Below, piece after piece: positions 24,001 through 30,000 of a stretch of 64,000 nucleotides of DNA. This stretch comes from Spirochaetia bacterium (lineage in GTDB: Bacteria > Spirochaetota > Spirochaetia > SZUA-6 > Bin103), in NCBI GenBank assembly GCA_965203055.1, contig OZ241863.1, positions 1,696,001-1,760,000 of the forward strand. The letters run 5' to 3'. The position numbers are program-made. Every line of letters starts with the position of its first letter. Within the stretch, counting starts at the first letter, position 1.

Positions 24001-27000
24001 AGGTCGGCCGCGGCCCCCTCGGGCAACGCCTCCCGGAACGCGCCGGCGCGCACCGGCGCGCCGCGCAGCAGGGTAGCCAGCAGCTCCATGCAGCGGCCGT
24101 CGAACGTCCAGCGGTAGCCGTTCGCCTGCAGCACCGCTTCGCCGCCGGCGCCCCGTTCCAGCGCCGCGTGCCGGGCGCCGCGCAGCCGGATCTCGCAGCG
24201 TTCCCAGTCGGGGGACTTCCACGGATCGAGATAGGGGCCGAGGCCCGGGCGCGACCGTTCCGACCAGGTAGCGCGCATGTGGTCGTCGAATCCCCGTTTC
24301 AGGTCTCCGTCCAGTTCCCTGAGGAGCAGCTCCCGGAGCGCCGCGTAGTGGGCGCCGCCGGAGCGGTCCGTCGGGTGGGGAAGATCGCGGCGGAAGGTCT
24401 CGTGGCGGGCGAGCCGGCCGGAAAGCCATTCCATGAATTCGATACCGGTGACCGCGTTGATGCTGCAGGTGAGGTGCACGCTGCCGGCGCCGTCGGAACC
24501 GTCGTCAGCCTCGGCGCGGGCGTCGTGCCACCAGCCGCGCGGGAGGTAGAGGACGTCGCCGGCCCTGAGCATCCCGTTCCACACCGGCTCGCCGGGCGGC
24601 GTCGCGGGCGGTTCCGCATCCCGCGTCAGCGGAAAGCGCCGCGTTTCGCCGTAGATCTGCCAGCGCTTGGTGCCGGCCACCTGCAAGATGAACACGTCGT
24701 GGTCGTCCCAGTGGGTTGCAAAGCCGGGGGAGGCCATCCACGACGCGTAGAGGTTGATCATCGCGTAGCCGCCCAGGGACTCCTCGATCGCGTCGGCCAC
24801 GGCACGAATCGGAGGATGGAGCTCGTGGATGCCGGGCAGGACGACGGAGGCGCCCTGGCGGAGCATCGCCTGCAGTCGCCGGCCATCGAGCACGCTCGAA
24901 TTCGCCGGTGAGGCGCCCATTCTCCAGCCGAGACCGAACATCGGCCTGGTGTAGGCGATGGAGGGGACGTTCCTGCCCTCCTTGACCAATTTCATCCGGA
25001 CGTACCAGGCGTCCGAGCACAGCAGTTCGTTGAGCTGCTCCCAGGAGCACAGGGACGCGAACCGAGGCGCCTCCGCCCGAAACAGGACCGGGCGCTTCTC
25101 CCGGTAGCGGGTATCGAGGAACTCCTGCGTGGTCAGCGGCCGGACGAGGCCGGCGAACTCGGCCGGATCGTGGCGCTCCGCGCCGGCGGGGAGCACCTCG
25201 ACCGCCGCGGCGGCCGCTGGCGGAACGCGCTCGCCGCGTTCACTCATCGCGTTCCCCTTCGGCGCGCGCGGCCGGCGCGCGGTCCGGTTGCTTCGCCGCG
25301 GTGTCGGGTATGATTTCGATGCTGATGTGCGGAACCGCGCCGCCGGAACTGGCGGCAGGCCGGATCCTGCTCAGGTAGTCGGCCTCCTGCTTGAAGGCAT
25401 AGTGGAAGGCCAGGCACACCACCGGCGCCTCGCCGTGCAAAAGCTTACGAGCGTCCATGACGCAGGGTAGTATACCGAACCGGGCCGAGGTCCGCATGCG
25501 CCGCCACACGCACCACACGCACCACGGCGATGCCGGATAATCCAACTTGATGGCCGTTCGCTTGACCCGCGGCCAACGATAGCCCAATACTCTGATCGAC
25601 GGCGCCTGCCGCCGAGCGCAGGCGCAGAGACTCGACGAGGAGGTGGAAGTCGTGGATACCGGACCCAAGACGATGGGTGAACTTCGCGAGCACTTGATCG
25701 AGAAGGCGACCATCGATGAGAAGTTCCGCGCGCAGTTCATCGCGGATCCAAAGGCTGCCATCAAGGAGGAGTTGGGGGTGGCGCTGCCCGACGGCTACAC
25801 CATCGAGGTGCATGAGGACGCCGCCGACGTCAGCCACATGGTGCTGCCGCCGCCGGCGGCGCTCGCCGAGTCGGAGCTGGCGGCGGCGGCCGGCGGGTCC
25901 GTCAAAGCATGGAATGCCGTAGATCGCACCTATGTCAGCATCGACAACGTGATCTCCTTCTGGGACGACTACGGCGGCACGACCTATCACGGCGGCCCGA
26001 GGCACAACGCCTGACTGACGGGCGGGGATGGTTCCCCGCCCGCCGGCAGCGGCGGGTAATCGAGCAGTGCCGTTGTCAGACCGCCAGTACCCAATACCCG
26101 CCGGCGCCAGCTTTGCCGCGGTCCTCGCCGGATGCCGCTCCCTGTTTCCGCCCGCGCTGCTCGGCGCGGCCGGTTGGGAGCGCCTCCTGGAGCAGGCGCG
26201 GCGGCTGCCCCGTTGCGTGGCAGACCATCACTTCGGCTTCGAGTTCCGTCTCGGCGAGTCGAGCCCGGCCGCCGACCTCGGCGTAGTCGTGCTCCCGGCA
26301 TCGGAGCTGGCGCGTCACTACGTCCGCGAGGGGGCGCGCGCCGAACCGGGGTCGCCGGCCGCCGCGCTCGCGGCCGGGCTGCGGGAACAGACCGAGAATC
26401 CCGATTCGTACCTTGCCCGCGGCGTGGCCGGGATGGTGTTGGAATACGATCTGGCCAAGGTCGAACCGGACCGTCCGCCGCCGGCCCCCGGGATATTCTT
26501 CACCCCGCGGCACTCGGCCCCGGGGGCGCGGCCGGAGTTTCATGAACATGGCGATCCCGCCGGCCTGCTTGCGGCGCTTGCCGTGACCGCCGGCTGGAGC
26601 AGTTACGAAGATGAGGTCCCGCGCGTCGAGCGCATCCTGGAGTCGCTGCCGGACAGCGGCTATCTGCTACAGGCGGGAGCCCTCCCGGGGCGCTCTCCGA
26701 AGGCGTTTCGGCTGGTCATCAAGGGCGTGGCGAAAGACGCGATTCCCGCGCTGCTGGAGCGTATCGAGTGGCCCGGCCCGACAGCCGAGGCGGCGGACGT
26801 GCTCGCCGCGCTGGACGACCTGGTCGCCTACGCCGCGGTCAGCCTCGACGTGACCCCGCGCGGCGTGGGCCCGCGGCTCGGTCTGGAACTATACCGCCCG
26901 CCGAAGTGGTTCGCGGTCGATCGCACCGGGTGGCACCCCTTCATCGCCCGAATCGAGGAGCGCGGCTGGTGCTTGCCGGCCAAGGCTGACGGACTGCGAA

Positions 27001-30000
27001 GCTGGCCCGGCGCCGAACGGCTGCTCGCCGACCGGGAGGTGCGCGCCGTTCGCCGGGGCATCAACCACGTGAAGGTCGTCATAGCCCCGGATACCCCGAC
27101 GGCGGCGAAAGCATACGCCGGCATGGACGTCCATCCGTACGGATCAACGCCGGCGCTACGATAACGCCGCGCCGGCGAAGCGCTTCCCGATCAGGAGCCC
27201 CGGTGCTGTTGTTTACCCATGCACAGCCGCAGGGATCGGAAATCGTCCCTGCGGCTGCAACGGAACGTCAGCCGGTCAGTCGGCGTTATGCCGCGGGCCG
27301 CCGTGATAGGTCGGGCCGCCGACGTCGTCCCAGAAGGTAAACAGATTGTCGGTGCCCACGTAGTTGCTGCCATTCCACCGGTAGATGGCCCCGCCGGACG
27401 CGGTCTCCAGCTCCGACTCGGCGAGCGACGCCGGCGGCGCCAGTACCAGGTTGGCGGTGTCCGGCGAGTCCTCATGCACCTTGATGGTGAAGTTCGGGGG
27501 GACCGCCATCTCCAACTCGTCCTTGATGGCAGTCTTCGGATCGGAGATCAGCTGAGCCCGAAACTCCGGGTCGGACGTAGCCTTCTCCACCAAGCGCGAC
27601 CGCATTTCCCGAACGGTCAGGGTTGCTTCGCTCATTACCTTCCCTCCATAAGTAAGTGTTCAAATGGAGAGTATCGGCTACCGGCGACAGGTGTCAACCG
27701 AGACGTACCTGACCTGGCGCAGAAAATCACTTATCCGGTATTTCAGTGGCCGCTCGCCCACCGGCCCGCGCCCCCCGGCGGGCCGCCGGCCGGTTTCCCG
27801 GTGCCCTTCCGGACCGCCCTTGGTATTCCCTATCGAATTACCTGTAAATCAATTACGCGGTAATCGTCGAGGTCCCGCCAGCCCTGCTGCGCACGTCAAC
27901 CCCTCCCGCAGCCAGCCAGTCTCAGGCAGTCCGGCGGTGGCGGGTGGCGCCGTCGGGGATCGAGATCGTCCCCGCGGCTGCGGAACGCCGGTCAGTCAGC
28001 GTTATGCTGCGGGCCGCCGATATAGGTCGGACCGCCGACATCGTCCCAGAAGGTAAACGCCTCGTCGATGCCCGCGTTGCCATATGCGGCATTCCACTTG
28101 TAGACGGCCCCGCCGGACGCGGTCTCCAGATCCGACTCGGCGAGCGACGCCGGCGGCGCCAGTACCAGGTTGGCGGTGTTCCGCGAGTCCTCATGCACCT
28201 TGATGGTGAAGTTCGGGGGGATCGCCATCTCCAACTCGTCCTTGATGGCAGCCTTCGGATCGGAGATCAGCTAAGCCCGAAACTCCGGGTCGGACGTAGC
28301 CTTCTCCACCAGGCGCGACCGCATTTCGGGCGCAGCCGGCTGCGCGCACGGCTTCGGGCAGCGCCCGGCAGCGCCGATCTCTTCGGGTGTGTGTCGTCAG
28401 GTCCCGTCGCCGCCCGCCGCGGCCGCGCCGTTGGGTTGGCTCCTGAGCTTCTGATACTCCTGCTCGCCAATCCCGGTCGCCCGCTCGATCAACGACCAGT
28501 CGACGCCGACCCGCAGGAATCCATCGATTATCTCCAACCGGCCCTCGCGGTGCCGCTGTTCGGCAACCGCTCGCATCTCGTCGCGCCCTTCCTGGCGCAG
28601 CCGCTCGCCGCTCGTCATCAACTCCCCTCCTGCCGCCGTGCGGCTCAGTATATCGCCCATCGCCTCGGGCGTGTCTTCAGGTCCCGTCTCCGCGATATAG
28701 TGCATGAACATCTTCATGTCGTCCTGACCGCCGCTTCCTTCCCGCTCCAAGTCGTCCAGCAGCGGCCGCATCCGCGCCCGTGCCTCCCGCACCGCGCGGC
28801 TGAAGGCGTGCATCATCGTCAGCTGCAGCAACCGCGCCCGGACGCTGCCGGCCGCCTGCGCCGGCGACACCTGCGTCTGATCGAACAGCACGTGCTCGAA
28901 CCGGGGCAGCCATGGCCAGTCCCGCGTTGCGGCCGGGAACAGGTCAGCGAACTGCGGGGAGTGCTGCCAGCCGGTGGGACCCTGGTAGAAGACCAGCGGC
29001 AGGATCGGGCGCAGATAGCCGGCATCCTGGTGGTCCCGGCGGTCGTGCTCCCAGATGCGGCAGCAGTAGGCCAGCAGGCGCAGGCGCAGCCAGTAGTCCG
29101 GGGTGGACTGATGCTCGAACAGCAGGTAGAGCCAGAGCGGAGCCTGCGCGGCGCCGGGTGCGGCGTAACCGATCTCGAACAGCAGGTCGGACGCGGTGCC
29201 GCGGAGGTCCGGGGCAACGAAGGAAGCGGGGAGCTGCTTGAGCGTGGGCCAGCGCAGGGCGCGGCTGAGCCGCGCGGGCAGCCTGGCTTGCAGGAATGAC
29301 GCGGCGTCCGCCGGGGCGCCGAACACGCGCTTGAACAGATGGTCGTGGGGCTGATGGATAGCCATGCCCCATATAACGGGCCGGCCGTCTGTGGCGCTTT
29401 TGCCCGGCGACGCCAACCCTGCGAGCATGGGGGATCGTCCTCAGGCATGCCGGGTGGCGGGTGGCGCCGTCGGCCCGCCGCCCCGTGCGCGCCGGCGGGC
29501 GGCCTCAGCCCTTCCCTGCCTGCGCTCGGCGGCAGCATGCGCGCCGCAATTCTGCTATGGTAGCTTCCGGCACGTATCGTTAGCGCTAAGAGAGAGGGAG
29601 TCATGCCGTCCATCGCAGTCAGAAACTTCGGTCCGATCGCGCACGCCGAGGTCGATCTGAAACCGCTTACCGTGCTGATCGGCTCCAACAACACCGGAAA
29701 ATCATACCTCGCTCTGGCAGTATACTCCCTGTTTCAGGCCGTCTTGAGGATTCGCGACCATAAATATCGGCCGACAAGATCGCGAAGAACTCTGAAACCA
29801 TTGTACGAGCATGAAAATTCGGTTCAACGCCTGGTGAGCGCGGGAGGTGACTGGAGCCGTATCAAGCCGGATGTCGTCAACGTCATCTCAGGGGCATCCC
29901 GGTTCCGCAATCTGCCAGCAGAGATCAAGGAATCTCTTCGAAAGGAATCGAAACTATGGGCCAGGGTGTACTCCGATTACATGGCGTACGAGTTGCAGCG

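Follow-up and report, generated by a model that had tools for sequence, protein, structure and literature searches.

An NHLP-leader peptide locus in a Spirochaetia genome with a sequence-orphan protein of predicted ABBA prenyltransferase fold and a JmjC hydroxylase gene

The window analysed here is a 64,000-nucleotide stretch of contig OZ241863.1 from a Spirochaetia bacterium, which is sponge-associated. Between positions 23931 and 28327, two NHLP-leader precursors are intact and a further copy is broken; the interval also holds the gene of a 378-aa protein, a JmjC gene, and a 72-aa open reading frame (ORF). We give slightly better than even chances to the explanation that the 378-aa protein is a leader-guided Trp prenyltransferase acting on the NHLP cores, which the JmjC module would also hydroxylate and a PCAT system would export. 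As part of this reading, the structural model suggests that the class-defining maturase of this RiPP locus would be a member of a sequence-orphan clade of the ABBA (alpha-beta-beta-alpha barrel) aromatic-prenyltransferase fold. Because the precursors adjoin an enzyme with a prenyltransferase fold and a likely peptide hydroxylase, secreted peptides with a lipid modification are its probable products, made along a hitherto undescribed route. Its features are as follows.

23931..25247, minus strand: JmjC / ribosomal-oxygenase-type Fe(II)/2-oxoglutarate hydroxylase, 438 aa (Pfam JmjC_2, PF08007)
25240..25458, minus strand: conserved small ORF, 72 aa plus stop (tblastn homologues; no known family)
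25673..26014, plus strand: NHLP precursor pre1 (TIGR03793; leader ending in ...LAESELAAAAGG, core SVKAWNAVDRTYVSIDNVISFWDDYGGTTYHGGPRHNA)
26028..27164, plus strand: unnamed protein of predicted ABBA prenyltransferase fold, 378 aa (AF2 fold, conservation)
27276..27635, minus strand: NHLP precursor pre2 (TIGR03793; core AIYRWNGSNYVGTDNLFTFWDDVGGPTYHGGPRHNAD)
27992..28327, minus strand: broken third precursor copy (in-frame TAG, diverged 5' end)

Both intact precursors scored above the NCBIfam cut-off for the leader_NHLP model TIGR03793 (50.9 bits), pre1 with 61.4 bits and pre2 with 52.1 bits; their cores are 37–38 residues long and carry an internal FWDD Trp. The third copy, which the first-pass annotation had taken for a precursor, is a pseudogene by its stop codon and altered 5' end; it scored only 16.1 bits and shares 83% protein identity with pre2. 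In the genome as a whole, where 11 precursors had been claimed, the NHLP loci number 12, two of them broken. The cores of the 10 intact ones all carry Trp and lack Cys, in agreement with the earlier description of Cys-free, Trp-bearing cores.

A second locus, also reported previously, contains an ABBA paralogue (C1:3856950-3858077) that is 60% identical to the window protein over 352 aa (59% had been claimed); the precursor beside it scored 72.8 bits with TIGR03793 and has the core FSWDNVGW. A complete NHLP export/peptidase system is present away from the window locus at C1:951876-958052. Its genes exceed the cut-offs of TIGR03796 (905.3 versus 853.3 bits) and TIGR03797 (728.3 versus 709.4 bits), and a partial match to TIGR03794 (83.9 bits) falls below the cut-off of 156.2. 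The TIGR03796 and TIGR03797 genes adjoin a precursor with a TFWDD core, which scored 60.0 bits with TIGR03793. Judged by sequence, the precursors thus appear to have the GG site, and the genome the dedicated peptidase/ABC export, expected of NHLP-leader peptides. The precursors and the ABBA gene had been recognized in the first-pass annotation; the JmjC gene, the 72-aa ORF, and the export system in trans had been missed.

The earlier claim that the ABBA protein has no Pfam, NCBIfam, or PDB sequence match held up when 99 family members were scanned and a 99-sequence profile was used. At E<=1 the window protein had no match in NCBIfam, including its prenyltransferase models, and none to Pfam Trp_DMAT (PF11991) or PTase_Orf2 (PF11468); its sole Pfam match was a sub-threshold one to SQS_PSY (E 0.038, 55 residues). 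A relevant Pfam match at E<=0.01 was found for 0 of the 99 members, and the profile retrieved no prenyltransferase from the PDB sequences at E<=10. Searching the whole genome with PF11991 at E<=10 gave no match, and 14 control genomes were equally without one. The unnamed clade comprises 1,745 clusters (50% identity, E<=1e-3), and the named clusters nearest to the protein in the ESM Atlas were Trp_DMAT (0.90) and PTase_Orf2 (0.88).

The AF2 model of the protein (pLDDT 90.7, pTM 0.89) is a beta-barrel of 11 strands, with five or more beta-beta pairs and flanking helices; the start codon is uncertain, and residues 1–20 have pLDDT <50. Foldseek returned 57 PDB matches at E<=1e-3 (TM ~0.5, identity 10–16%), and among the matches listed all were ABBA prenyltransferases. 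When 48,161 chains were compared by VIA-align, ranks 1–19, which include all chains with Z>=8, were again ABBA prenyltransferases, from Z 18.1 (MpnD) to 11.3 (DciF); rank 20 had Z 6.0. The assignment to the ABBA fold was therefore reproduced, and the modelled protein is predicted to have the barrel of the ABBA aromatic prenyltransferase superfamily, at 6–16% identity to solved ABBA enzymes. An all-alpha isoprenoid-synthase fold of the ComQ/PalQ type was also considered; the 11-strand model speaks against it, and the sub-threshold SQS_PSY match is the sole Pfam trace of that superfamily.

An NHLP precursor lies within 700 bp of the enzyme gene for 31 of 35 full-length ABBA homologues; these counts are not independent, because many loci come from related MAGs. 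The remaining 4 have no precursor within that distance; a pairing in 40 of 40 loci had been claimed earlier. The MAG labels are Spirochaetia, Binatia, Gammaproteobacteria, Dehalococcoidia, and Vicinamibacterales (five phyla), plus one metagenome contig. PCAT and HlyD genes adjoin the ABBA gene at four loci (L007, L012, L023, and L025), and none of the loci scanned has a linked prenyl-diphosphate synthase gene. The predicted cleavage site is GG in 43 of 55 unique precursors, and an L(X)4L motif was seen at the leader end in the alignment. Cys is absent from most cores, and LanM is absent. Trp, in contrast to its 0.07% share of leader residues, makes up 7.9% of core residues; it occurs in 50 of 55 unique cores, and the sole invariant core residue in 25 aligned precursors is W97.

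These results would also be expected if the ABBA protein were a true NHLP maturase with another chemistry, such as alkylation of Tyr, Asp, or the C-terminus, use of a non-isoprenoid donor, or cyclisation or cross-linking of Trp; linkage and conservation fit this explanation and prenylation equally well. Three of the 5 Trp-free cores among the 55 are YY cores, and the loci that encode them (L023–L025) have two ABBA paralogues and lack Trp entirely, as another chemistry would allow. Nor does any known prenyltransferase sequence family match the protein. However, every solved chain of this fold at Z>=8 is a prenyltransferase, and the conserved basic residues and Tyr of the family would suit a diphosphate donor. 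We consider such an alternative chemistry unlikely.

Twelve residues of the ABBA protein are conserved (E72, D83, E139, D141, R222, R228, W302, K319, H347, K349, K361, and Y363): E72, K349, and Y363 are invariant, and the other nine are found in 90% or more of 99 sequences. The model puts nine of the twelve on barrel strands, and i/i+2 spacing is seen in E139-x-D141, H347-x-K349, and K361-x-Y363. Regardless of core type, 33 of 34 homologues from the loci retain the set, with substitutions limited to K/R, H/Y, and one K-to-Q. This retention of polar or aromatic residues across subclades only 35–45% identical argues against a non-catalytic barrel with a scaffolding (leader-binding), chaperone, or immunity role. 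The cyanobactin protein PatF is such an inactive barrel and has the same fold (Z 12.7), and linkage alone cannot separate an enzyme from a binder. Nevertheless, the ABBA gene is often the sole non-transport gene beside the precursor, as in the locus of the paralogue, and nothing else there could therefore modify the peptide. A role of this kind seems to us very doubtful. Finally, although the window locus lies amid Rpn/YhgA transposase-like and restriction-modification genes and the best structural matches use small indoles, an aromatic prenyltransferase of small molecules that lies beside NHLP genes by accident in mobile, defence-rich islands is a highly improbable reading, given the linkage in 31 of 35 homologues across five phylum-level labels and unrelated neighbourhoods, enzyme subclades that follow core type in a quick tree, and the 13 nt between the pre1 stop codon and the enzyme start.

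The JmjC protein matches Pfam JmjC_2 with 90.2 bits (cut-off 22), and its PDB sequence matches were NO66, MINA53, YcfD, and YxbC. Alignment with NO66 placed H-W-D against H-Y-D and SVHLT against SLHLT (HxD...H), and the protein is accordingly predicted from its sequence to be a JmjC cupin with the HxD/E...H iron triad. Homologues 65–89% identical were found 0.1–2.8 kb from the ABBA gene at eight loci (L001–L006, L008, and L013); among 61 relatives, the gene occurs in 5 genomes, in single copy and never more than 4 kb from an ABBA match. The 72-aa ORF overlaps the JmjC start codon by 8 nt, and tblastn located homologues directly upstream of JmjC at L001–L005, L008, and L013. Alignment of eight sequences showed 10 invariant residues and 38–81% identity to the window copy; the ORF had no Pfam match at E<=1, and its AF2 model was poor (pLDDT 63). 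The JmjC cupin and HxD...H triad are shared with NO66, MINA53, YcfD, and with the RiPP-pathway hydroxylases BipG of biphenomycin (PMC12707348) and CzlI of curacozole (PMC11575548). All of these modify side chains of peptides or proteins, as we propose for the window enzyme, which differs from BipG, CzlI, and the ribosomal oxygenases in being accompanied by a conserved ORF that belongs to no known family. By sequence, the window enzyme is matched best by the eukaryotic His hydroxylases, which are distant (E 2e-16).

The gene content, families, fold, linkage, and conservation described above lead us to propose the following pathway. The NHLP leader of about 75 aa, with its L(X)4L...GG end, would dock the precursor on the ABBA enzyme, which from its fold, gene context, and conserved barrel residues may use a prenyl diphosphate as donor to prenylate the indole of the invariant core Trp, the putative target being the W of the (S/T)FWDD motif. 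The adjacent JmjC Fe/2OG enzyme and its translationally coupled 72-aa partner would hydroxylate a core residue, and the NHLP-type peptidase/ABC/HlyD system encoded in trans would cut after GG and export the lipidated peptide, which might act as a signal or antimicrobial in the sponge microbiome. That 10 intact precursors accompany two enzymes in this genome suggests that sponge symbionts keep a combinatorial library of peptides. More speculatively, the clade could be dedicated to maturing, by prenylation of Trp or Tyr, a large Cys-free NHLP class in at least five phylum-level lineages, one branch having the JmjC gene and 72-aa partner, with ComX/PalX-like signals or antimicrobials as products that are horizontally exchanged among sponge symbionts; it would then be a convergent third route to leader-guided Trp prenylation.

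If the proposed chemistry is true, a large unannotated protein family gains a function, and a ribosomal lipopeptide class has been overlooked by current genome-mining rules, since it triggers no class-defining Pfam or NCBIfam model. Enzymes that prenylate Trp under leader guidance and with residue selectivity are sought as peptide-lipidation tools, and a leader-tied clade structurally closer to DMATS enzymes would broaden that toolbox; with the JmjC protein and its small partner, a new system for hydroxylating peptides would be gained.

The best structural matches of the ABBA protein are the DMATS-type enzymes MpnD, CymD, FgaPT2, IptA, and PriB (Z 18.1–16.3 over 280–310 aligned residues), to which it is nearer (Z 16–18) than to PatF, PagF, and DciF (Z 11–13), with identities of 6–15% and Pfam Trp_DMAT unmatched. 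DMATS-type enzymes use an indole acceptor, which is free Trp or a small indole and not a ribosomal peptide; we know of none with linked precursor genes. A nearer parallel in substrate is PalX of Paenibacillus alvei, an NHLP precursor whose conserved C-terminal Trp is prenylated by PalQ, the one adjacent prenyltransferase, in a reaction enhanced by the leader (PMC10853753). PalX resembles the precursors of the ABBA family in its leader, Cys-free core, and conserved, often C-terminal Trp; of the 55 ABBA-family cores, 15 end in Trp. In pre1 and pre2 the FWDD Trp is internal to cores of 37–38 residues. PalQ is placed there in the isoprene-synthase (ComQ-like) superfamily, unlike the alpha-beta-beta-alpha repeat barrel modelled here, so that Trp prenylation by both, if both prenylate, would be convergence. 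The other parallel is provided by MppC of Moorena producens, an ABBA-type Trp C5-geranyltransferase that is strictly leader-dependent and to whose activity an L(X)4L motif contributes (PMC12715784), and by NctPC, a PT-cyclase credited to Hubrich et al. 2024 in PMC12715784 and PMC13290415. Both are described there as soluble ABBA-type enzymes that act on Trp of long-leader (Nif11) RiPP precursors, and are placed with the cyanobactin F-family and with lanthionine-cyclised core substrates. The same L(X)4L motif ends the NHLP leaders of the ABBA loci, whereas these loci have no LanM and mostly Cys-free cores, and their ABBA protein matches none of the NCBIfam or Pfam models. Prenylation of Trp in NHLP-led peptides is thus on record for enzymes that are unrelated or only distantly similar (PalQ and MppC). 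The proposal of Trp prenylation by the ABBA protein thus gains from its fold, orphan sequence, cross-phylum linkage, and constant core Trp, and is less new than had been implied, because prenylation of a C-terminal Trp behind an NHLP leader was known with a different enzyme fold; with PalX/PalQ and MppE/MppC as precedents (PMC10853753, PMC12715784), Trp prenylation of these long-leader peptides is plausible by analogy.

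The locus occupies window positions 23931-28327 and contains six features:

23931-25247, minus strand, JmjC-domain gene encoding 438 aa (PF08007)
25243-25458, minus strand, 72-aa ORF, overlapping at its stop with the JmjC start (8 nt)
25673-26014, plus strand, precursor gene pre1, NHLP leader at 61.4 bits against an NCBIfam cut-off of 50.9
26028-27164, plus strand, ABBA ORF encoding 378 aa, beginning 13 nt downstream of pre1
27276-27635, minus strand, precursor gene pre2, convergent with the ABBA ORF, 52.1 bits against 50.9
27992-28327, minus strand, third precursor copy, whose protein is 83% identical to that of pre2

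An in-frame TAG and a diverged 5' end mark the third copy as a pseudogene, with an 80-aa remnant the most it could encode. The first-pass annotation described precursors and an ABBA gene at this locus, and that description held; it missed the two conserved partners, the JmjC gene and the small ORF.

The ABBA protein had no NCBIfam match at E ≤ 1, and its sole Pfam match, to SQS_PSY, was sub-threshold (E 0.038). Ninety-nine diverse homologues gave no relevant Pfam match at E ≤ 0.01, and a search of PDB sequences with the profile built from them gave no prenyltransferase match at E ≤ 10. The tryptophan dimethylallyltransferase family PF11991 (Trp_DMAT) had no match at E ≤ 10 in the whole genome or in 14 control genomes. 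The AF2 model made with the 99-row alignment (pLDDT 90.7, pTM 0.89) contained repeated helix-strand-strand-helix units. Foldseek returned 57 PDB matches at E ≤ 1e-3; all of the matches listed were ABBA aromatic prenyltransferases, with TM scores of about 0.5 and identities of 10-16%. In a Foldseek-independent comparison with 48,161 chains by VIA-align, ranks 1-19 were ABBA prenyltransferases and the next chain had a Z of 6.0. The DMATS-type enzymes scored highest (Z 18.1-15.7), followed by the Orf2, CloQ, EpzP, and AmbP1 types (14.7-13.4) and by the cyanobactin enzymes PatF, PagF, and DciF (12.7-11.3). The nearest named clusters in the ESM Atlas, which serve as leads only, were Trp_DMAT (0.90) and PTase_Orf2 (0.88). 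As modeled, the protein is one with a clear fold and no sequence family. Prediction of its complex with pre1, using the 99-row and 25-row alignments and run without controls, gave scores of 0.02 and 0.03, the mark being 0.32.

In an exhaustive HMMER scan the family comprised 1,745 cluster representatives at E ≤ 1e-3, falling to 699 at E ≤ 1e-10 and to 113 at E ≤ 1e-30. The 120 close homologues listed had neither a name nor a Pfam domain, and the seven clusters checked for names held only "hypothetical protein". Across the 99 sequences E72, K349, and Y363 were invariant, and D83, E139, D141, R222, R228, W302, K319, H347, and K361 were kept in at least 90%. These twelve positions were kept in 33 of 34 homologues from the loci, the sole changes being K/R, H/Y, and one K-to-Q, and the conservation, which held for every core type, reached subclades sharing as little as 35-45% identity with the window protein. 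In the AF2 model predicted barrel strands carry nine of the twelve, arranged as i/i+2 pairs. By its residue conservation the family looks enzyme-like. Enzymes sharing a diphosphate co-substrate would be expected to keep a polar set constant while the acceptor varies, and we infer such a role for the conserved polar residues here.

Loci with ABBA homologues (L001-L028) were collected from species-representative genomes (10 loci), from metagenome contigs (2 loci, identical in sequence), and from relatives of the window's genome (16 regions). Searching metagenome contigs with the single window ABBA protein found no relative; the two metagenome loci were found with a closer alignment, A4. An NHLP precursor lay within 700 bp of 31 of the 35 full-length homologous ABBA genes, counts that are not independent because many of the loci come from related MAGs. 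The four exceptions were L022; L028, a 665-aa outlier only 24% identical; and L011 and L012, a single sequence entered twice, in which a methyltransferase gene separates the enzyme gene from precursors about 0.9 kb upstream. The records were labeled Spirochaetia, Binatia, Gammaproteobacteria, Dehalococcoidia, and Vicinamibacterales, and the 46-69% identity to the window protein that the 10 species-representative loci keep across these labels suggests that ABBA genes have spread laterally. Among 61 relatives the family was patchy, occurring in 10 genomes, often in multiple copies (up to six matches).

In four loci (L007, L012, L023, and L025) genes for HlyD and a C39-peptidase ABC protein adjoin the ABBA gene, forming complete RiPP clusters; that of L012 also carries the methyltransferase. 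L023 and L025 each have two ABBA paralogues, with two P450 genes in L023 and one called in L025. The cores of L023 (6001-11404), L025, and L024, from relatives G007, G017, and G005, consist of just YY, GYY, or SYY, with two divergent ABBA paralogues on the flanks of these clusters. The P450 genes and the exporter set (PCAT, ABC, HlyD) were seen at L023 and L025, the only ones of these scanned with Pfam. Such clusters could possibly make a di-tyrosine product that is prenylated or cross-linked. In L007, from a Dehalococcoidia MAG, a FAD_binding_4 oxidase whose C-terminal domain resembles that of cytokinin dehydrogenases (7081-8550) lies between the ABBA gene and the HlyD/PCAT genes. The isopentenyl side chain is where cytokinin dehydrogenases act, so the oxidase is a weak hint of prenyl chemistry.

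The precursor cores are rich in tryptophan. Among the 55 unique cores encoded by the 59 intact precursor genes of the loci, 50 had Trp, 15 had a C-terminal Trp, and 13 had FWD; Cys was present in only five. Five cores lacked Trp, and three of these were YY, GYY, or SYY. Trp made up 7.9% of core residues vs. 0.07% of leader residues. When 25 precursors were aligned, a single residue past the GG site was invariant: the Trp of (S/T)FWDD, which is W97 in pre1. In a quick maximum-likelihood tree the enzyme subclades tracked core type (FWDD, xSWDxVGW, ...DW-ending, and YY), although kin in it also share labels.

Of the 12 NHLP loci in the window's genome, 10 are intact and 2 are broken. Four intact cores are of the FWDD type (pre1, pre2, C1:2482785, and C1:951566), and six have Trp at core position 3 (FSWDNVGW, MGWSFQW, and four IDWS/INWS). 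These two groups fit the two enzyme paralogues of the genome. The third intact precursor of the FWDD/GGPRHNA type (C1:2482785-2483120) is an orphan, far from any enzyme gene. In the second broken NHLP gene (C1:1335965-1336156) the leader continues into unrelated sequence after LVLPP.

The only C39-peptidase match in the genome belongs to a full set of NHLP export genes (C1:951876-958052; TIGR03796, 905 vs. 853; TIGR03797, 728 vs. 709; plus an additional HlyD-like protein), and a precursor with a core ending in TFWDDQPK is 8 bp away from this set. It is therefore plausible that all ten intact precursors are cleaved after GG and exported in trans.

The JmjC protein matched PF08007 at 90.2 bits and also matched the ribosomal oxygenases NO66, MINA53, and YcfD as well as YxbC, with the HxD...H iron triad aligned. 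Homologues 65-89% identical to it lie 0.1-2.8 kb from the ABBA genes most like that of the window (L001-L006, L008, and L013). In the reverse direction, the JmjC gene was found in five of 61 relatives, always in single copy and never more than 4 kb away from an ABBA match. The small ORF is directly upstream of the JmjC gene in eight loci, including the window, and has 10 invariant residues; it had no Pfam match, and its AF2 model was poor (pLDDT 63, pTM 0.27). The stretch mainly common to JmjC-linked cores is D/E-x-x-x-(S/T)-F-W-D-D. JmjC hydroxylases acting on RiPPs are proven, namely BipG (biphenomycin, ornithine; PMC12707348) and CzlI (curacozole, Phe; PMC11575548).

The surroundings of the locus are mobile and defence-rich, with type I restriction-modification genes, four Rpn/YhgA transposase-like genes, and AAA ATPases. 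In the restriction-modification set (15136-23827), three tandem Rpn/YhgA (Transposase_31) paralogues (17897-21739) split the HsdR-like gene (15136-17778) from HsdM (21740-23827). The fourth Rpn/YhgA gene (28397-29428) directly follows the broken precursor, and similar Rpn genes adjoin at least two other NHLP loci in this genome. An AAA_15/AAA_21 ATPase gene lies in a low-GC (50-56%) island, and an AAA_15/DUF3696 ATPase gene adjoins a GmrSD_N nuclease-like gene (29603-31042 and 36173-38393); both ATPases and the nuclease-like gene are probably defence genes. The window also holds two tandem paralogues matching DUF6242/DUF7354 (45999-49904), two sulfatase genes (8014-9429 and 51129-52712), and several PhyH dioxygenases.

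Near-identical locus sequence was present in contigs of sequencing runs labeled sponge or marine metagenome. At least half of the sampled words were found in 9 of the 18 runs listed, which span seven studies; none of the 18 was an RNA run holding the locus. Logan contigs of run X1 contained near-identical pieces, with 0 differences over 403-871 nt, and those of X3, X4, and X10 contained slightly divergent short pieces; the locus is therefore present in these four runs. In two runs 9 or 18 bp were inserted after 25501-25503, in the stretch that separates the small ORF from pre1. Contigs of X3, X4, and X10 joined 27223 to 27956, skipping 732 bp including pre2, through a joint with sides of 25 letters; a joint whose sides fall short of 30 letters is unreliable, and this one is a weak sign of a form that would have one downstream precursor.

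Full-text literature searches did not find an ABBA prenyltransferase together with NHLP, and the titles and abstract openings retrieved for NHLP prenyl or proteusin prenylation did not describe the family. In excerpts of a 2026 review, canonical ABBA indole prenyltransferases act on peptides only as promiscuous biocatalysts and not as natural RiPP maturases (PMC13290415). Prenyltransferase-cyclase fusions were described by Hubrich et al. 2024, as cited in PMC12715784 and PMC13290415. Leader-dependent, ABBA-type Trp prenylation of a Nif11-led lanthipeptide is established for MppC (PMC12715784), as is Trp prenylation of an NHLP precursor for PalX/PalQ (PMC10853753). The logic of leader-guided Trp prenylation of peptides is thus already known; within the literature searched, the enzyme clade, the cysteine-free linear cores, and the JmjC/small-ORF module appear undescribed. 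Three distant loci have a sensor protein within about 0.5-1 kb of a precursor or enzyme gene, namely a GAF hybrid histidine kinase/response regulator (L012, 519-3074), a Cache-domain protein (L007, 2429-4591), and a 7TMR-DISM kinase (L028, 2607-5468). They recall the PalP kinase of the pheromone-like PalX/PalQ cluster (PMC10853753). PalQ itself has a ComQ-like isoprene-synthase fold (PMC10853753), whereas the fold predicted for the window protein is ABBA.
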